Notes under the pieces: model-generated
Seen by the model: only the letters and a program-made list of their open reading frames with translations
What the model was told of the DNA's origin: nothing
Database searches by the model: none
Virus genome (UHGV): UHGV-0115898
DNA from: a virus
Reading direction: 5' to 3' (one strand)
DNA: 40,790 nucleotides
Shown: piece by piece, positions 6,053 through 29,684 of the stretch
How the letters are laid out: each line of letters begins with the position of its first letter
How positions within the stretch are numbered: the stretch's first letter is position 1
Translations under genes and position numbers: made by a program

Positions 6053-6760
6053 TTATGCCGCCTGTTTTAGCTCGTTAACTCTGATGTTCATTACCTGAAC
6101 GCATTTAGCCTGCGCCTCCTCGTTTCCAGCCATTAATTGCCAGTCATGCTGATAACGCTCGATGAGTTTTTTCTTGTCAGTTTCTGTCGCTGCATAATCG
6201 CTGAAGTCTTTCAGGATTTGTTCGCAGTCAACCGATGGAGATTTCTGGTTGGTATTTTCTGGTGATGGTTTGTTATCTGATGCTGGGATTGCCCATCCCG
6301 GCAGCGATGGAGGGGACCAGTAAAATCCTGTTCCATCCTTCAGTTTTGCCCTGTGCCATCCCTGCTTTTTATCGAGAGATGTTTGTGCGAAACCTTCCTC
6401 AAGGTTATACAGATACCGACCGATTCCCCATTGAACGGCAGCGCGCTTCATTGCGCCGGAACGACCACCTTTGACTGCTTCTACCTGCGTGTTTTCAGCA
6501 GCATCCCATTTGGTTACCCATTCGGAATCAATCTTTATTGATATGCCGCATTCAACGCCGCCGTTGTTGGGAATATCGCGGTATTCATTGCGCCATCCTG
6601 CTTTGCCGCAAACATCGTCCAGGCGTTTCATGATTGCCCGGTTCGTGACATAAGCCAGCACCATAGCCCACACTTTGCCATCGCGTGTTTTACCGCTTTG
6701 CTGTATTCGCCATTCGATATCTTCAGGGCTGAATGGCTCATCGAATTTGTTCAAATCCAT
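6053..6760 (-). CDS. Single-strand annealing recombinase: Rad52-like N-terminal domain fused to a P22 Erf-like C-terminal tail (235 aa)
   Basis: C-terminus ...AATETDKKKLIERYQHDWQLMAGNEEAQAKCVQVMNIRVNELKQAA matches the P22 Erf C-terminus from memory; N-terminal ~150 aa (EWRIQQ...LAYVTNRAIMKRLDDVCGKAGW) looks Rad52/Sak-like, not Erf-like. Confidence 0.75.
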   Translation of the reverse strand: MDLNKFDEPFSPEDIEWRIQQSGKTRDGKVWAMVLAYVTNRAIMKRLDDVCGKAGWRNEYRDIPNNGGVECGISIKIDSEWVTKWDAAENTQVEAVKGGRSGAMKRAAVQWGIGRYLYNLEEGFAQTSLDKKQGWHRAKLKDGTGFYWSPPSLPGWAIPASDNKPSPENTNQKSPSVDCEQILKDFSDYAATETDKKKLIERYQHDWQLMAGNEEAQAKCVQVMNIRVNELKQAA

Positions 6761-19648: not shown

Positions 19649-21108
19649 TGTCGTCAGAATTCGAGGCAATGCTTGCCGATGATATGGGGCGATTCTTTTA
19701 CGATCCGCTTGGCTTCGTTATGTATGCGTTTGATTGGGGAACTGGTGAGCTTGAGGGCTTTGACGGACCCGATGAATGGCAGAAAGAGTTTCTGACAGAT
19801 TGGGGAGACGCAATCAGGACTAATAACTTCGACGGTGTTAAACCTGTTGAAGCCTATCGTTGCGCTACCAGCTCTGGTCACGGTATCGGTAAAAGTGCTC
19901 TAACTGCCTGGGTCATTCTGTACATCCTCAGCACTCGTCCTTTCTGCAAGGGCGTCGTGACAGCCAATACCTCTGAACAGCTTCGCACCAAAACATGGGG
20001 CGAGCTGGGCAAGTGGAAGAAGCGGTGCATCACTGGTCACTGGTTTGAGTACAACAACGGCAAAGGCAACATGAACATCTACCATGTGGATCACATGGAA
20101 TCATGGCGCTGTGACGGCCAGACGTGTCGGGAAGAGAACAGCGAGTCATTTGCTGGCCTGCATGCAGCTAACTCAAGCCCGTTCTACATCTTCGATGAAG
20201 CCTCAGCGGTTCCTGACAAAATTTGGGAAGTAGCAGAGGGCGGCCTTACTGACGGCGAGCCTTTCTGGTTTGCATTTGGGAACCCGACCCGTAACACCGG
20301 TCGATTCCGAGAGTGCTTCCGCAAGTTCAAACACCGATGGCGTCGACGTCAAATTGATAGCCGCCTGGCAAAGATGACCAACAAAGAGCTCATCGAAGAG
20401 TGGCGCAAGGATTACGGTGAAGACAGCGACTTCTTTAAAGTACGTGTTCGCGGTCTATTCCCATCGACATCAGAAGTCCAGTTCATACCTCAGGCATATG
20501 TGGATGAGGCCATGTCTCGCACGCTTGAGCCCGGGTCTTACACATTCGCATCCAAAATAATCGGCGTTGACCCTGCTTACACAGGTAGTGATGAGGCATC
20601 AATTTACCTTCGCCAGGGTCTTCATGCGCGCCTGCTTGGCACCTACCCGAAAACAGATGACGACGTTAAGTTCGCGCAAATCGTCGCAGGATTTGAGGAT
20701 GAGCATAAGGCAGATGCAGTGTTCATAGACTTCGGGTATGGCACCGGAATTCACTCAATAGGTAGGTCGTGGGGAAGGAAGTGGCAGCTGGTTAACTTTG
20801 GGGGTGAATCCAAAGACCCCGGCATGCTGAACAAGCGCGGTGAGATGTGGAACTCAATGAAGTCATGGCTCAAAGAAGGGGGAAGTATCGATGATCAGCA
20901 AACAGCTGACGAAATCGTTGCTCCTGAGTACAGGGTTAAGCTCGATGGGCGCATCGTCCTTGAGGCCAAAGAGGACATGAAGCGCCGTGGGGTTCCTTCA
21001 CCAAACCGCGCTGATGCGTTAGCCCTGACGTTTGCATTCCCGGTAGTCAAAAACAAACCAACTAAGCCATTGCCGGCTCCAATTCGTCCAATTTCCAGAG
21101 GTAGATAA
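19648..21108 (+). CDS. Terminase large subunit (486 aa)
   Basis: ATPase Walker A-like SSGHGIGKS, Walker B-like FYIFDEAS, C-terminal nuclease region; size and position typical of P22-like TerL. Confidence 0.9.
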
Positions 21109-23276
21109 TGGCCGACCAAGACGACAAATTGCGAACCATTCTCCTTCGGTTTGACGCAGACTGGATGGCGAGCGATGAAGCCAGAACCGAGGCGACAAAT
21201 GACCTGTATTTTAGCCGAGTGTCGCAATGGGATGACTGGCTATCAAACTACACCACCCTGCAATATCGCGGACAATTCGATGTTGTTCGCCCGGTGGTCA
21301 GGAAACTGGTCGCAGAGATGCGCCGGAACCCTATCGACGTTCTCTTCCGACCCAAAGACGGCGCTAATCCTGATGCAGCCGATGTGTTGATGGGGATGTA
21401 TCGTACTGATATGCGCCATAACACGGCAAAGATTGCCGTTAACGTTGGCGTTCGTGAGCAGATAGAGTCCGGCGTTGGTGCATGGCGTCTGGTCACACAG
21501 TACGAAGACAACGACCCAACAAGCAACAATCAGGTAATCAGACGCCTGCCAATTCATGAAGCCTGCTCACACGTCATATGGGACGCCAACAGCAAGCAGA
21601 TGGATAAGAGCGACGCTAAGCACTGCACGGTGATTAACGCCTTGTCGCGCAATGGCTGGAAAGAGTTCGCAGAGGATTACGGTATTGATCCGGACACCTT
21701 GCCATCTTTCCAGAATCCGAACGATACATGGCTGTTTCCGTGGGTATCGAATGATGTCGTCTACGTCGCTGAGTATTACGAGGTCGAAGAGAAGAAAGAG
21801 AAGGTCTTCATCTACCGCGACCCGCTGACAGGTGAGCCGGTCAGCTATTACCAGCAGGATATCAAAGACGTCATCGACGACCTGGCTAATCGTGGATTCA
21901 TTAAGGTAGCAGAGCGTAAGGTCAAGCGTCGGCGTGTGTATAAGTCGATCATCACCTGCACGCAGATACTGAAAGACCGCGAGAAGATAGCCGGAGAGCA
22001 TATTCCAATCGTTCCAGTGTATGGCGAATGGTCATTCGCTGGTGACAAGGAGTGCTACGAAGGAGTGGTAAGGCTGACGAAAGACGGTCAGCGCCTTCGT
22101 AACATGATCATGTCGTTCAACGCCGATATCGTTGCTCGTTCACCGAAGAAGAAACCGACCTTCTTCCCTGAGCAAATCGAAGGCTACGAATACATGTACG
22201 GTGGAAATGATGACTATCCGTACTATCTGCAGAACAGGACCGATGAAAACGGTAACGACCTGCCGATTGGTCCAATCTCCTACATGGAAAACCCTGAAGT
22301 GCCGCAAGCCAACGCTTACATGCTTGAGGCTGCCACCAACGCAGTGAAAGAGGTGGCTAGTCTTGGCGTTGATGCGCAGGCGGCAAATGGTCAGGTCGCT
22401 TTCGATACCGTCAATCAACTGAACATGCGGGCAGACCTTGAGACATACGTGTTTCAGGATAACCTGGCTACCGCAATGCGACGTGATGGCGAGATTTATG
22501 CCTCAATGGTCAACGATATTTATGACGTTCCTCGCCATGTAACGCTGACTCTTGAAGACGGAAGCGAGAAAGACGTTCAACTCTATGCGCAAGTTGTCGA
22601 TTACCAGTCCGGCAATGTGGTCACACTCAACGACATTCGCGGTCGCTATGAGTGCTATACAGACGTAGGACCATCCTTCCAGAGTATGAAGGAACAGAAC
22701 CGCGCAGAGATTCAGGAGTTGCTCACCAAGGTTCCGCAAGGTACTCCAGAGTTCCAGATGCTGATGCTGCAATACTTCACGCTGCTTGACGGTAAAGGCG
22801 TCGAGATGATGCGAGAGTACGCGAACAAGCAACTGGTGATGATGGGGCTGAAGAAGCCAGAAACACCTGAAGAGATGGAGATGGTACAGCAGGCTCAACA
22901 GCAGCCGCAGCAGCCATCAGCAGAGCAAATTCAGGCGCAGGGTATCCTTCTGCAAGGTCAGGCTGAATTGCTCAAGGCAGAGAACCAACAGGCGCAGATT
23001 CAGGTTGAAGCCGCCAAGGTTGAAGCCCAAAACCAACTCAACGCCGCGAAGATTGCGGAAATCTTCAACAATATGGACCTCGACAAGCAGGCAGAACTGC
23101 GTGAGTACCTCAAGCTCGTAGGTCAATTCCAGCAACAGCGCAGCAAAGATGCTCGTGCTAACGCTGAGCTGCTTCTTAAAGATGCAGACCAGACTCATTC
23201 ACAACGCATGGATTTCGCGAATCTTATGCGTCAAGTTCAAATCCCCTCCGGCGGAGTAGCCGAGACACCTCAATAA
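21108..23276 (+). CDS. Portal protein, P22 gp1-like (722 aa)
   Basis: Extensive match to the P22 portal from memory ([14 protein letters not shown]...[12 protein letters not shown]...[31 protein letters not shown]...), glutamine-rich C-terminal barrel region. Confidence 0.95.
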
Positions 23277-23289
23277 GAGAGAGTTAACC

Positions 23290-24201
23290 ATGGACCAAAC
23301 CACCGACATTCAGGCTTCTGAAGAATTAACCCTGCCCGGCAATCATGCAGCGGCATCTGCTGATGGCTTAGTTGTCGATAATGCCAACGACATCGCAGGT
23401 CAGGAAGAAGGCTTCGAGATTGTCCTGAAAGACGATGAGAAACCAAAACAAGACCCGGCAACTAATGCTGAATTTGCCCGTCGCCGCATCGAACGCAAAC
23501 GCCAGCGTGAGCTTGAGCAACAGATGGAAGCGGTTAAGCGTGGAGAGTTGCCGGAGCACCTGCGGGTGAACCCTGAGTTACCAAAACAACCAGACCCTAA
23601 CGATTATCTTTCCGAAGATGCACTGGCTAAGTACGACTATGACCAGAGCCGCGCACTGGCTGCCTTCCAGCAGGCAAATAGTGAATGGCAGATCAAGGCT
23701 ATGGACGCACGAAGCCAGGCTGTCGCCGAGCAGGGTCGCAAAACTCAGGAGTTCACCCAGCAATCAGCGCAATACGTCGAGGCAGCCCGTAAGCACTACG
23801 ACGCAGCGGAAAAGCTCAATATCCCTGACTATCAGGAGAAAGAGGATGCATTCATGCAACTGGTGCCGCCAGCAGTCGGTGCCGACATCATGCGCCTCTT
23901 CCCGGAGAAATCCGCTGCTCTCATGTATCACCTTGGTGCTAATCCTGAGAAAACACGCCAGTTGCTGGCGATGGACGGGCAATCCGCGCTGATTGAACTC
24001 ACTCGACTGTCAGAACGTTTAACTCTCAAGCCTCGAGCCAAACCTGTTTCAGAAGCCCCGCTACCTGATGAACCCATTCAGGGACACGCTGTTGCTGCAA
24101 ATATATCTGCGATTGAAAAGCAGATGGAAGCGGCAGCAAACAAAGGGGATGTAGAGACATACCGCAAGCTCAAGGCGCAACTGAATAAAGGAATTCGATA
24201 A
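23290..24201 (+). CDS. Scaffolding protein, P22 gp8-like (303 aa)
   Basis: Acidic, helical 303-aa protein between portal and coat; same length and position as P22 gp8. Confidence 0.85.
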
Positions 24202-25496
24202 TGGCATTAAATGAAGGTCAACTGGTCACGTATGCTCTGGATGAAATCATCGAAACCGTCCAGAACCTGACGCCAATGGCGTCCAAAGTGACAAAATACA
24301 CCCCTCCGGCAGAATCCATGCAACGTTCAAGCAACACCGTGTGGATGCCTGTTGAGCAGGAAGCGCCAACTCAGACTGGCTGGGATTTAACTGGCAACGC
24401 TACCGGGATTCTGGAACTCTCCGTGAAATGCAACATGGGCGATCCGGATAACGATTTCTTCGAGCTTCGTGCAGATGACCTGCGTGATGAGCGTTCTTAC
24501 CGTCGCCGCATCCAGGCATCCGCCAAAAAACTGGCGAATAACATTGAGTCAGCAATTGCCAAACAGGCAACTGAAATGGGCTCGCTTGTTGTTCACGATA
24601 CCCGCGCAATTGGTCCATCTACTGGCCTGTCTGGCTGGGATTTTGTGTCTGATGCAGAGCGCCTGATGTTCTCCCGTGAGCTAAACCGCGATATGGGCAT
24701 CAGTTACTTCCTGAACCCTGACGATTACCGCAAAGCAGGCCGCAACCTGGTAGATGGTGACATCTTCGGTCGCGTTCCTGAAGAAGCGTATCGCAACGGT
24801 ACTATTCAGCGTCAGATTGCTGGCTTTGATGAAATTCTTCGCTCACCGAAACTTCCGGCAGTTACCAAGTCAACCGCTACTGGTGTAACTGTTTCTGGTG
24901 CGCAGAAGTTTAAGCCGCAGGCATACACTCTTGATACCGATGGTAACAAAGAGAACGTCGACAACCGTGTTGCAACGGTGACCGTATCCTCCACCACCGG
25001 GTTTAAGCGCGGCGACAAAATCAGCTTCACTGGTGTGAAATTCCTGTCTCAGATGGCGAAGAACGTGCTGACTGATGATGCTACTTTCTCAATCACCCGT
25101 GTGATCGATGGTACTCACATCGAAATCACGCCGAAGCCGATTGCACTGGATGACGCGTCACTGACAAAAGAAGAGAAGGCTTACGCTAACGTAAACACCT
25201 CTCTTGCTGATACCACTCCGGTAAACGTTCTGAACGTGGCAACAACCACCGCTAACGTGTTCTGGGCTGATGACTCAATCCGCCTGCTGTCTCAGCCGAT
25301 CCCGGTAACCCATGAACTGTTTGCTGGCATGAAAACGTCTTCCTTCAGCATTCCTGGTATTGGTGTTAACGGCATCTTCGCAACGCAGGGTGATATCAAC
25401 ACTCTGTCTGGTAAGTGCCGTATTGCTGTGTGGTATTCAGCATGTGCTGTACGACCAGAGGCAATTGGTGTTGGTCTGCCTAACCAGACCGCGTGA
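24201..25496 (+). CDS. Major capsid (coat) protein, P22 gp5-like (431 aa)
   Basis: Match to P22 coat from memory (MALNEGQ...DEIIET...[20 protein letters not shown]...[13 protein letters not shown]). Confidence 0.95.
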
Positions 25497-25502
25497 TAAC
25501 CA

Positions 25503-25529
25503 AAGGGAGCTTCGGCTCCCTTTTTTATC
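25503..25529 (+). terminator. Intrinsic terminator after coat gene
   Basis: AGGGAGC-ttcg-GCTCCCT hairpin followed by TTTTTTAT, beginning 7 nt after the coat stop. Confidence 0.8.
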
Positions 25530-25540
25530 TGGAGACAAGC

Positions 25541-25789
25541 ATGACACACATGATCTTTCGTCATGGCGACATGAAGAAATGGAAAGGCGTTGGATACGAC
25601 TTTGAAATCGTGAAAGCCGAAGAGCTTCAGGAATATCTGGATGCTGGCTGGTTTGCACATCCTGATGATCTTCTGAAGGATGTTGCAGAGCCAGAGCCAG
25701 AGCCAGAGCCAGAGCCAGAAGAAAAACAGCGTAAAAAGCCTGGTCGAAAACCTAAGGCGGCAGCAGATGAACCTGACAACGAAGGGTGA
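25541..25789 (+). CDS. Hypothetical small protein (82 aa) with an internal (EP)5 repeat and a basic C-terminus
   Basis: ATG at 25541 preceded by GGAGA; contains [11 protein letters not shown] encoded by a hexanucleotide tandem repeat; 3' end overlaps the gp4 start. Confidence 0.55.
25687..25716. repeat. Hexanucleotide tandem repeat (agagcc) x5
   Basis: Five perfect tandem units read directly in the sequence. Confidence 0.9.
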
Positions 25790-26267
25790 TTTAGTCCTTG
25801 CGGCATTACGTAAGCTCGGTGTGGCATCAAATGCCACGTTAACCGATGTCGAACCGCAGTCCATGGAAGACGGCGTCAATGACCTTGAAATGATGATGGC
25901 TGAATGGCTTGGCGGTGATGTGTCACCTGGTATCAACGTTGGCTACATTTTTGCTGATGCAGATGTCGCTCCGGATCCGGGCGATGAGCACGGTTTATCA
26001 AATAACGCTATCAATTCTGTCATTTTCAACCTTGCCTGCCGAATTGCTCCGGATTATGCGCTGGAAGCCTCTGCAAAACTTATAACCACTGCCAGATACG
26101 GGAAAGAGAGACTCGTCAAACTGTCTGCAATGGACAGAGCAAAAGCCGCTAAATGTAAGTCCGGTTATCCAAACCGTATGCCTGTTGGTAGCGGTAACCA
26201 GTTGGCGAAGTGGAACGGTTGGAATTACTTCCACCATAAGGAACCTTGCGATAACGGGAGCGAATAA
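25767..26267 (+). CDS. Head completion / tail adaptor protein, P22 gp4-like (166 aa)
   Basis: [42 protein letters not shown]...[13 protein letters not shown] matches P22 gp4; ATG at 25767 (ORF-track start at 25680 is an extension). Confidence 0.9.
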
Positions 26268-27686
26268 ATGCCAATTCAGCAACTTCCGCTTATGAAAGGT
26301 GTCGGAAAAGACTTCCGAAACGCCGACTATATCGACTATCTGCCAGTGAATATGCTGGCTACACCCAAAGAAATCCTGAACAGCAGCGGATATCTTCGCT
26401 CATTCCCGGGCATTGCCAAACGTTCTGATGTGAACGGTGTATCTCGCGGCGTTGAGTACAACATGGCGCAGAATGCTGTTTATCGCGTATGTGGTGGCAA
26501 GCTGTATAAGGGCGAAAGTGAAGTCGGTGATGTTGCCGGAAGTGGTCGTGTATCAATGGCGCATGGTCGCACATCTCAGGCGGTAGGCGTTAATGGTCAA
26601 CTGGTCGAGTATCGCTATGATGGCACGGTTAAAACCGTCTCAAACTGGCCTACAGACAGCGGATTCACGCAGTATGAGTTAGGCTCAGTCCGCGACATTA
26701 CACGCTTACGTGGGCGTTATGCGTGGTCAAAAGACGGCACTGATTCATGGTTTATCACTGACCTTGAAGACGAATCGCATCCTGACCGTTACAGCGCACA
26801 ATATCGCGCAGAATCGCAGCCGGACGGCATCATCGGTATCGGCACATGGCGAGACTTCATCGTCTGCTTTGGTTCATCGACGATTGAATATTTCTCCCTG
26901 ACTGGCGCAACCACAGTTGGTGCCGCTTTGTATGTCGCCCAGCCATCGTTAATGGTGCAGAAAGGCATTGCCGGGACTTACTGCAAAACGCCGTTTGCTG
27001 ATTCCTATGCGTTTATCAGCAATCCGGCAACGGGTGCGCCGTCTGTATACATTATCGGCTCCGGTCAGGTGTCACCAATCGCCAGCGCGAGCATTGAGAA
27101 AATTCTCCGCTCCTACACTGCTGATGAACTGGCTGATGGTGTGATGGAGTCTCTGCGATTTGATGCGCATGAGCTGCTGATTATCCACCTTCCGCGCCAT
27201 GTTCTCGTGTACGACGCATCTTCAAGCGCCAATGGTCCGCAATGGTGTGTGTTGAAAACTGGCTTGTATGACGATGTGTACCGCGCTATCGACTTCATTT
27301 ACGAAGGCAATCAGATAACGTGCGGCGATAAGCTGGAATCGGTTACCGGCAAATTGCAGTTCGATATCAGCAGCCAGTACGACAAGCAGCAGGAACACCT
27401 GCTGTTTACTCCGTTGTTCAAAGCGGATAACGCCAGATGCTTCGATCTGGAGGTGGAATCATCCACTGGCGTAGCTCAGTACGCCGACCGCCTGTTCCTC
27501 TCGTCAACCACTGATGGCATCAATTACGGGCGTGAGCAGATGATTGAGCAGAATGAACCGTTCGTTTATGACAAACGTGTTTTGTGGAAGCGAGTCGGGC
27601 GCATCAGGAAAAATGTCGGCTTCAAATTGCGCGTTATCACGAAGTCACCTGTCACTCTGTCTGGCTGCCAGATAAGGATTGAGTAA
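26268..27686 (+). CDS. Tail accessory protein, P22 gp10-like (472 aa)
   Basis: Same length and gene order as P22 gp10. Confidence 0.85.
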
Positions 27687-28534
27687 TGGCGGATTCAAAT
27701 CTCAATGTGCCGGTAATCATTCAGGCTACACGGCTCGACACATCAGTCCTTCCACGCAATATCTTCTCGCAGTCGTATCTGCTTTACGTTATCGCACAGG
27801 GTACTGATGTTGGTAACGTGGCGAACAAGGCCAACGAGGCCGGACAGGGCGCTTATGATGCACAAGTCAGGAACGATGAGCAGGATGTGATTCTCGCTGA
27901 CCATGAGCAGCGAATTTCTGCTGCGGAAGCAACGCTTGTTAATCATGAGGAGCGAATCAGCCAGGCAGAATCAACTCTTCAGGAACATGAAACACGAATA
28001 GCTCAGAATGAAAGCGATATTGCGTCGCTTGATACCAGAGTTCAGTCGCTGGAATCGCAGGTTTCAGACCATGAAACGCGCATCGATGCTCTGGAGTATG
28101 CCACTACTCGCAAGAAGTCAGAGGTTGTTTACTCTGGCGTATCTGTCACCATACCGACAGCGCCGACCAACCTTGTTAGCCTGCTGAAAACGCTCACGCC
28201 GTCATCCGGCTCGTTGGCACCATTCTTCGACACAGTTAACAACAAGATAGTTGTGTTCAACGAGAACAAAACCTTGTTCTTCAAGCTGTCTATCGTCGGG
28301 ACGTGGCCCAGCGGAACCGCCAACAGGTCAATGCAGCTAACCTTTTCAGGCTCTGTTCCTGACACACTGGTAAGCAGTCGTAATGCGGCGACAACAACCG
28401 ACAACATCCTGTTAGCTACGTTCTTCAGCGTGGATAAAGACGGATTTCTTGCCACAAATGGCAGTACGTTAACCATCCAGTCAAATGGTGCGGCGTTTAC
28501 TGCCACAACCATCAAGATAATCGCGGAGCAGTGA
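27686..28534 (+). CDS. Tail needle, P22 gp26-like N-terminus with a longer, different C-terminal region (282 aa)
   Basis: N-terminal 60 aa match P22 gp26 ([29 protein letters not shown]...[24 protein letters not shown]); heptad-repeat central coil; C-terminal ~120 aa beta-rich and unlike P22. Confidence 0.85.
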
Positions 28535-28991: not shown

Positions 28992-29684
28992 ATGTTATAT
29001 GCATTTAAGCTGGGCAGAAAACTGCGCGGCGAGGAACCTTGGTGCCATGAAAAAGGCGGGAAAGGTGGTAGCTCTGATAAAAGCGCAAAGTATGCAGCAG
29101 AAGCCCAGAAGTATGCAGCAGACCTGCAAAATCAGCAGTTCAACACCATCATGAACAACCTGAAGCCGTTTACTCCTCTGGCTGATAAGTATGTCGGCAG
29201 CCTCGAGAACTTATCGTCTCTGGAAGGGCAAGGTCAGGCACTTAACCAGTATTACAACTCTCAGCAGTACAAAGATCTTGCTGGTCAGGCTCGCTATCAG
29301 AGTCTGGCGGCAGCGGAAGCAACAGGTGGATTGGGTTCCACTGCAACCGGTAATCAGTTAGCAACAATCGCACCAACGCTTGGTCAGCAGTGGCTGTCTG
29401 GTCAGATGAACAACTACCAGAATCTGGCAAACGTTGGGCTTGGTGCTCTGCAAGGTCAGGCAAACGCAGGGCAGACATATGCCAACAACATGAGTCAGAT
29501 TTCGCAGCAAAGTGCGGCTCTTGCAGCGGCAAATGCCAACAGACCATCAGCAATGCAATCTGCTATTGGCGGAGGTGCGTCTGGTGCTATTGCTGGGGCT
29601 GGACTTGCGAAATTAATTGGTTCATCAACTCCGTGGGGGGCTGCGATCGGCGGCGGTCTTGGTCTGCTTGGCTCGTTGTTTTAA
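28992..29684 (+). CDS. Ejection (internal virion) protein, P22 gp7-like (230 aa)
   Basis: Gln/Ala/Gly-rich low-complexity protein with glycine-rich hydrophobic C-terminus; length and order match P22 gp7. Confidence 0.8.
   Translation: MLYAFKLGRKLRGEEPWCHEKGGKGGSSDKSAKYAAEAQKYAADLQNQQFNTIMNNLKPFTPLADKYVGSLENLSSLEGQGQALNQYYNSQQYKDLAGQARYQSLAAAEATGGLGSTATGNQLATIAPTLGQQWLSGQMNNYQNLANVGLGALQGQANAGQTYANNMSQISQQSAALAAANANRPSAMQSAIGGGASGAIAGAGLAKLIGSSTPWGAAIGGGLGLLGSLF

Follow-up and report, generated by a model that had tools for sequence, protein, structure and literature searches.

A length-variable Glu-Pro spacer in the small gene between coat and gp4 of a P22-like Escherichia coli prophage

Results

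The coat-gp4 region

The window, i.e. the whole stretch of 40,790 nucleotides that was analysed, is a complete P22-like (Lederbergvirus-type) E. coli prophage. Its late operon runs in the order portal, scaffold, coat, small ORF, gp4/Ad3, gp10 and Sf6-type needle, and strong Pfam or PHROG matches were obtained throughout. The features of the region are as follows.

21108-23276, portal gene (Pfam/PHROG match)
23290-24201, scaffold gene (Pfam/PHROG match)
24201-25496, coat gene (Pfam/PHROG match)
25502-25530, plus strand, terminator-like hairpin of the coat gene (hairpin 25502-25523, GC-rich 9-bp stem, loop TTCG, then a T-run), directly 3' of the coat stop
25531-25534, plus strand, Shine-Dalgarno of the small ORF as read from the sequence (GGAG, 6 nt 5' of the ATG)
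25541-25789, plus strand, small ORF (ATG 25541, TGA 25787-25789; 82 aa, 9.5 kDa, pI 4.8; phrog_1175)
25541-25684, plus strand, N-domain of the small ORF (residues 1-48; long beta-hairpin, alpha-helix and GW..HP turn; G36, W37, H40, P41 and L44 invariant)
25688-25717, plus strand, hexanucleotide VNTR (GAG CCA)x5 encoding (EP)5 (residues E50-P59); acidic spacer and right-hand junction of a cassette swap
25724-25762, plus strand, basic AT-hook-like tail (13 residues including KKPGRKPKA, net charge +7), residues conserved between genera while the codons vary synonymously
25754-25757, plus strand, likely Shine-Dalgarno of gp4 (AAGG within the K72-A73 codons AAG GCG of the small ORF, 9 nt 5' of the gp4 ATG)
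25767-26267, plus strand, gp4, homologue of the head-tail adaptor Ad3 (166 aa; PF11650 at E 8e-58; phrog_637)
26268-27686, gp10 gene (Pfam/PHROG match)
27686-28534, Sf6-type needle gene (Pfam/PHROG match)

A first-pass annotation of this DNA had placed an 82-aa ORF with a hexamer repeat between the coat terminator and gp4. The ORF indeed follows the hairpin at 25502-25523, and its 3' end shares 23 nt with gp4 (ATG 25767), as had been stated. At the position equivalent to this hairpin, a stem-loop is annotated in P22 and 't coat' in Sf6. No promoter-like site was found in 24900-26400. Therefore, the small ORF, a conserved late-operon accessory gene, would be expressed by read-through of the coat terminator. 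An Rfam scan of 25300-25900 gave no match near the gathering score.

The small ORF encodes a protein

The substitution pattern of the N-domain against other genera supports the protein-coding frame, and the small gene is genuine. Over the first 44 codons, 25-36 substitutions separate the ORF from its Citrobacter, Kluyvera, Buttiauxella and Rahnella homologues, and 19-22 of these are at codon position 3. In the same four-genus comparison, synonymous codon changes numbered 11-14 in the frame of the ORF and 0-3 in either other frame. Judged from these substitutions, the encoded N-domain is under strong purifying selection.

A different frame assignment was also considered, in which the repeat belongs to an N-terminally extended gp4 that starts at ATG 25680 and reads (SQ)5 into the head-tail adaptor. 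From this ATG, the window and its close E. coli relatives have an uninterrupted gp4 frame (a 195-aa ORF), and the record of phage Dewey annotates the Ad3 gene at 594 nt, running 5' through the repeat. However, the gp4 frame of P22, Citrobacter, Kluyvera and Buttiauxella has a stop one codon 5' of the canonical ATG, and that of Erwinia is interrupted between the repeat and the gp4 ATG. The PF11650 and phrog_637 profiles both begin at the canonical ATG, proteins with different upstream domains keep the EP frame, and the AAGG that immediately abuts ATG 25680 leaves zero spacer for initiation. Since the upstream extension is not conserved in frame in P22, Citrobacter, Kluyvera and Buttiauxella, the extended gp4 was rejected as highly improbable.

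The annotation of the coat-gp4 slot is inconsistent, and in several records the small ORF is missed, truncated or merged into gp4; the slot is a recurrent annotation trap. In phage Dewey (L001; 1472-1609, 1684-2277), the small ORF is absent from the annotation and Ad3/gp4 is extended 5' through the repeat. A RefSeq 'WDGH domain-containing protein' (L004 1491-1898) begins at an internal Met, and the real ORF reaches the upstream N-domain and has 201 aa. In the IME10 records (H4-H6), no gene is annotated in the slot.

A homologue of P22 orf69

The small ORF matched phrog_1175 at E 3.8e-37 (protein 1-80; profile 1-72/72), and P22 orf69 (NP_059631) matched the same profile at E 4.5e-31. By this profile comparison, the window ORF is the E. 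coli homologue of P22 orf69. P22 orf69 (6135-6344) is located 3' of the annotated coat stem-loop and overlaps gene 4 by 17 nt. A 186-aa relative, named Orf186, ORF54 or gene 6 (phrog_3769), is found in the same slot of phages L, ST64T, ST104, SE1, epsilon34, g341c and BTP1. In the window, P22, BTP1 and ST104 alike, the gene lies between the coat terminator or stem-loop and gene 4, and its 3' end overlaps or abuts gene 4. The alignments showed that the window protein carries the family residues G9, G36, W37, H40 and P41 and the C-terminal basic R/K-K-x-K-A. The window protein thus shares with the P22 orf69/Orf186 family its slot, the N-domain (GW..HP) and the basic tail, (K/R)KxG(R/P)KPKA.

The common plan is an N-domain of about 45 aa, a variable middle, a basic (K/R)KxG(R/P)KPK(A/G) motif and usually a short acidic end over gp4. 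The acidic end is absent from the Citrobacter and Kluyvera ORFs, and the Kluyvera ORF stops 3 nt before the gp4 ATG. The middle is (EP)n in the window protein and in relatives from E. coli, Citrobacter, Kluyvera, Buttiauxella and Rahnella; the Rahnella homologue has (EP)6 followed by KKKPGPKPKK. The Erwinia homologue has (EQ)5 and an acidic stretch before KKRGRKPKAA. The E. coli loci L004 and L005 have WDGH plus (EP)n as the middle, and dozens of N-domain plus WDGH proteins carry an EP/PE spacer and the basic motif. In contrast to the pure (EP)5 VNTR of the window protein, the spacer of P22 orf69 is 7 residues long and non-repetitive, and the length of this repeat-free type is essentially fixed, at 69 aa almost uniformly. 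Salmonella Orf186 has an inserted WDGH domain (PF25311) and no EP repeat. In another N-domain plus WDGH protein (P0216, 208 aa), a (GT)n run, GAGAGPKTGTGTGTGTETEP, is found at the position of the EP spacer and is followed by the canonical AT-hook KKRGRPAKV. Dipeptide repeats seem to arise readily at the linker position in general.

Sf6 gene 6, recorded as similar to HK620 hkbT (phrog_3251), occupies the same slot after 't coat'. It also has a small N-terminal domain and a basic tail, KRGRKAAD; its stop overlaps the gp4 homologue, and the downstream Shine-Dalgarno AAGG lies inside K-A codons, as in the window. Unlike the window ORF, it has no repeat. Its homology with the small-ORF family was rejected (hhalign probability 1.2%).

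A PDB sequence search with the 203-aa sister protein gave no meaningful match. One archaeal match, on a Methanomassiliicoccales MAG contig (L097), covers residues 53-77 only. The translated contig showed no evident homologue of the small ORF, and low complexity probably accounts for the match.

The repeat array and its copy number

The five perfect AGAGCC units that had been noticed earlier are present at 25687-25716, and none of 100 dinucleotide-preserving shuffles gave such a match. TRF reported 25686-25719 with period 6, 5.7 copies, 100% matches and a score of 68. The array is a perfect head-to-tail run of a short unit beyond chance, i.e. a simple-sequence VNTR. The lysine-rich tail described behind the EP linker is also there, with 7 basic residues among 13.

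Searches of Pfam and NCBIfam with the 82-aa protein gave nothing beyond a sub-threshold match to trypanosome procyclin (PF05887 Trypan_PARP). This match reached 16.9 bits against a Pfam gathering cut-off of 100 and reflects EP composition only, and procyclin was rejected.

It had been proposed that the linker length may vary between isolates and that invariant copy number among relatives would speak against this. The copy number does vary, from 1 to 16 units, with all observed differences in whole 6-nt steps, and it differs even between loci with identical flanks. In the first search, 2-13 dipeptide units were counted between 'KDVA' and 'EEKQRKK' in 120 protein clusters. The range was widened by RefSeq complete genomes with 15 and 16 units (L006 and L007) and with 1 unit (L103). 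Protein lengths run from 74 to 104 aa in 2-aa steps. Among sequenced phages, Bas106 has 2 units, Dewey 6 and APC_JM3.2 8; from matched spans, Louie and HZ41 have 5 each and IME10 has 8. An odd span was checked in one case (L007) and was accounted for by a 1-nt intergenic indel (304 + 66 - 1 = 369). Expansion and contraction without frameshift had likewise been predicted, and every ORF from the loci examined is intact with the same tail. The locus was matched in 217 of 5,426 complete E. coli genomes (about 4%).

The differences could in principle be assembly or sequencing artefacts, since simple repeats can mis-assemble and many loci come from metagenome-derived or draft contigs. However, the arrays are 6-96 nt long and thus below typical read length, the variation is present in RefSeq complete genomes and isolated phage genomes, and the differences are whole 6-nt units with interior variant units in structured patterns. 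An artefactual origin is therefore hardly credible.

In 83 loci with usable flanks, GAGCCA makes up 89% of the units. The variant units are single-nucleotide derivatives, namely GAGCAA (EQ), GAGACA (ET), GATCCA (DP), GAGTCA (ES) and GAGCTA (EL), and some of them are themselves amplified, as in ESESES, EQEQEQ and (ESEPELEP)2. GAGCCA is dominant across genera with N-domains that have diverged at most of their synonymous positions; this points to continual turnover and homogenisation of the array. Ten locus pairs had 0 differences in 2,947 nt of flank, and five of them differ in copy number, by up to 5 units. On this estimate of tempo, which comes from few near-identical pairs in public assemblies, change in the array outpaces the accumulation of point substitutions.

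The DNA fold of the repeat showed no hairpin potential. Therefore, slipped-strand mispairing is the likely mechanism, as simple misalignment of direct repeats, and a hairpin-mediated expansion is not indicated. The pure (GAGCCA)n array would gain or lose whole 6-nt units, so that the reading frame is never lost. Spacer length may drift in this manner between 1 and 16 units among close relatives, while turnover would keep the array homogeneous.

Two other functions of the array or its surroundings were rejected. A phase-variable ON/OFF contingency locus does not fit a 6-nt unit, the intact ORFs with the same tail at all loci examined and an array outside promoters. Sequence inspection also excluded a programmed -1 frameshift at CGT-AAA-AAG: gp4 is read in the +1 frame with respect to the ORF, and a -1 shift does not lead there.

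Besides the hexamer array, a larger in-frame duplication was seen in this gene: the E. coli protein P0003 (93 aa) has an 11-aa tandem duplication at the end of the N-domain.

Cassette exchange at the repeat

About 44 of the 217 matching E. coli genomes align to the window from the repeat onward only. In two loci (L004 and L005), the coat gene is 97.6-98.7% identical to the window and the tail, gp4 and gp10 are 95-97% identical; solely the segment 25536/25560-25683/25692 is replaced, by a divergent N-domain plus WDGH. This alignment pattern is that of a cassette exchange with the EP array as its right-hand boundary, so the repeat is, as read from the aligned loci, a recombination joint.

WDGH is widespread in Listeria, Bacillus, Klebsiella and Erwinia phages, and its fold has no PDB match. 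Fusions of WDGH (PF25311) with a Tad2-like Thoeris anti-defence domain (PF11195) and with crAss001_48 (PF21825) occur in P0270, P0252 and P0277 (Serratia and others). The fusion with the Tad2-like domain hints weakly at counter-defence cargo in the slot.

The N-domain resembles a homing-endonuclease module

In the AlphaFold2 model, the N-domain was predicted with a pLDDT of about 90 as a beta-hairpin (2-25), a helix (26-34), the GW turn and a short helix (42-48). The EP tract and the tail had a pLDDT of about 50, and the spacer had no secondary structure, which is consistent with a disordered or extended spacer. The model of the sister protein showed the same N-domain fold with a pLDDT of 95-97. 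Comparison with solved structures found nothing resembling either AlphaFold2 model, and the BFVD matches to the model of the window protein are small phage proteins that have not been characterised.

When 1.84 billion representatives were searched with the N-domain, short relatives were returned together with homing endonucleases of the GIY-YIG and HNH types, whose C-terminal regions contain 3-8 copies of a module 'hYxxxG..V...ELQxYLDxGWxxG'. The alignment of the N-domain matched the alignment of this module over the strand-helix-GW core with an hhalign probability of 96.4% (E 1.3e-9), and reciprocally the endonuclease P0158 matched phrog_1175 at E 2e-14. The GW module has no Pfam name and no solved structure. 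The window N-domain and the endonuclease repeat module (phrog_314 and others) thus have the beta-strand/helix/GW core in common. However, the window protein has one copy of the module, a longer hairpin and no nuclease domain, whereas the free-standing GIY-YIG/HNH endonucleases carry the module repeatedly. The window protein was not taken as a homing endonuclease, since its 82 aa hold no GIY-YIG, HNH or other nuclease domain and only the accessory module is in common. The match to the module hints at DNA binding by the N-domain.

HNH homing-endonuclease genes also occur close to the locus. One splits gp10 in an E. coli genome (19451123; L005 2385-3110), and phage Dewey has another immediately 5' of its coat gene (L001 1-137). 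These insertions in the cluster are notable given the resemblance of the small-ORF N-domain to the accessory module of such enzymes.

The basic tail and the start of gp4

The R-K-K-P-G codons of the tail vary synonymously between lineages (CGT/CGC, AAA/AAG, CCT/CCG/CCA and GGT/GGG/GGA). This indicates that the basic motif is selected at the protein level. On the other hand, 'CCT AAG G' is nucleotide-invariant in P22, BTP1, Citrobacter and Sf6-type loci, and it coincides with the AAGG 5' of gp4. That part of the tail is therefore dual-coded, and the conservation of K-A would be due to the embedded putative gp4 Shine-Dalgarno and not to protein function.

The tail resembles an AT-hook in being short and basic and in containing Gly and Pro. 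It does not have the canonical Gly-Arg-Pro core, and a canonical AT-hook was rejected: the window reads K-K-P-G-R-K-P-K, with a Lys between R and P (PGRKP). Canonical RGRP cores are found at the tail position in relatives, namely KRRGRPPKA (P0161), KKRGRPTKV (P0204) and KKRGRPAKV (P0216), and many other relatives read PGPKP, without Arg. The whole window protein is acidic (net charge -8, pI 4.8), and with 16 units the net charge would be -19. This overall charge is unusual for a DNA binder and argues for caution. Nevertheless, the GW module and the tail together suggest nucleic acid (DNA) binding as the most likely molecular activity, as far as sequence comparison can tell.

The arrangement at the gp4 start raises the question of a translational leader. 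The ORF would then carry ribosomes past the coat terminator to gp4 by termination-reinitiation, with a largely irrelevant peptide and the repeat as neutral filler. The stop of the ORF overlaps or abuts the gp4 start in every lineage (overlaps of 23 nt in the window and 17 nt in P22, and a gap of 3 nt in Kluyvera), the likely gp4 Shine-Dalgarno lies inside invariant K-A codons of the ORF, and non-homologous small ORFs such as Sf6 gene 6 (record: similar to HK620 hkbT) take the same slot with the same overlap. However, the amino acids of the N-domain and, through synonymous changes, the R-K-K-P-G codons are under strong purifying selection, and the N-domain is confidently folded and occurs elsewhere. 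Furthermore, the gp4 start has its own AAGG and is unsequestered: the RNA fold of the gp4 start region gave z = +0.99, and its structure is not unusual. With the same value, a structure-gated coupling is unsupported. Selection on the protein and the unstructured gp4 start together mean that coupling cannot be the main role, and a mere leader is unlikely. As a further property, the ORF could plausibly be coupled to gp4 in translation.

Discussion

P22 is among the best-studied phages, yet no function has been assigned to its small gene between coat and gene 4. Annotation of this gene family goes back to the P22 genome record. The genome paper of phage L labels orf186 'detailed function unknown' (PMC8022706), and a literature search for orf69/orf186, WDGH, hkbT/Sf6 gp6 and the GAGCCA VNTR found no functional studies; in the literature searched, the product was likewise not reported as a structural or decoration protein of virions. 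We consider the window ORF an accessory homologue of P22 orf69 that encodes a three-part protein with a slippage-prone and length-tolerant EP spacer, DNA binding being its most likely activity. We give this overall reading a probability of about 0.7. The protein consists of a folded 'GW' module of about 45 aa with a beta-hairpin and a helix, an acidic Glu-Pro spacer and a short basic AT-hook-like motif. The spacer may act as an extended acidic tether of about 0.6-10 nm. The conserved feature is the scheme of module, acidic low-complexity spacer and basic motif.

Spacer length is probably tolerated over a wide range and near-neutral rather than tuned or adaptive, because P22 orf69 is nearly spacer-free and the spacer of one E. 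coli allele is reduced to a single EP. The contrary would be adaptive tuning, in which the EP number is a mutational 'dial' for reach (about 0.6 to 10 nm if extended) or net charge and hosts differ in the length that they select; for instance, the acidic tract could act as an auto-inhibitor of the putative DNA-binding tail beside it, which is basic. Several observations fit this. The tract mutates faster than its flanks, an acidic spacer beside a basic motif is conserved across genera, and net charge runs from -4 to -19 across the observed alleles. The same linker also carries other dipeptide repeats: Erwinia has (EQ)5, P0216 has (GT)n, and both (ES)n and (ET)n are found in E. coli. However, besides the two nearly spacer-free examples, the copy-number distribution is broad and no preferred classes were seen, and a hexamer unit preserves the frame by itself, so that in-frame variation is explained without selection. 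Adaptive tuning is thus rather doubtful.

A further reading of the coat-gp4 slot is that it encodes DNA-tethered cargo. An interchangeable head (GW module, WDGH or both) would be joined through the acidic spacer to an AT-hook-like clamp, and the protein would be made late, co-packaged and delivered with the genome, e.g. as an early counter-defence factor. Such cargo would follow a logic analogous to that of the internal proteins of T4 and the Dar proteins of P1. If this were true, the EP VNTR would set tether length and charge and serve as the recombination joint for swaps of the head module. We regard the cargo reading as speculative and quite improbable.

Two known systems offer comparisons. 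First, the proline-rich spacer of TonB, (Glu-Pro)n-(Lys-Pro)m, has an acidic run and then a basic Lys/Pro stretch and joins functional parts. As in TonB, an acidic Glu-Pro run stands directly before a basic Lys/Pro-rich stretch in the window protein; the resemblance is compositional and not homologous, and the basic part is a KP repeat in TonB and a single KKPGRKPK motif here. TonB itself was rejected: there was no TonB match in Pfam or NCBIfam, the protein has no membrane anchor or C-terminal domain, and its N-domain is a soluble beta-hairpin/helix module. Second, orf232 of phages L and ST64T contains a 15-bp coding repeat whose copy number differs (PMC8022706, Table 1). Both the orf232 repeat and the EP array are coding tandem repeats that vary between nearly identical P22-like phages. 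However, the gene, unit length and position are different, and the EP hexamer array is much purer and more polymorphic.

In-frame VNTRs are already known, also in P22-like phages, and this is a fairly ordinary case of a hypervariable protein linker, sound and modest rather than surprising. Against the literature searched, the EP VNTR and its range, the modular reading of orf69/Orf186, the link between the N-domain and the homing-endonuclease module, and the AT-hook-like dual-coded tail appear to be new. The study provides a three-part architecture, a testable putative activity, DNA binding through the module and the tail, and a natural allelic series of 1-16 EP units for probing the spacer. 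As a clean 6-bp VNTR in about 4% of complete E. coli genomes, the array could serve as a prophage typing marker.

Two other repeats were seen in the window. An imperfect 12-nt repeat of 2.4 copies lies at 22886-22914, in the Gln-rich C-terminal part of the portal gene. A 21-nt unit is present twice with a 90% match at 29081-29122, within a 230-aa ORF (28992-29684) that, from its position after the needle and gp14-like genes, is probably a gp7-type ejection protein.
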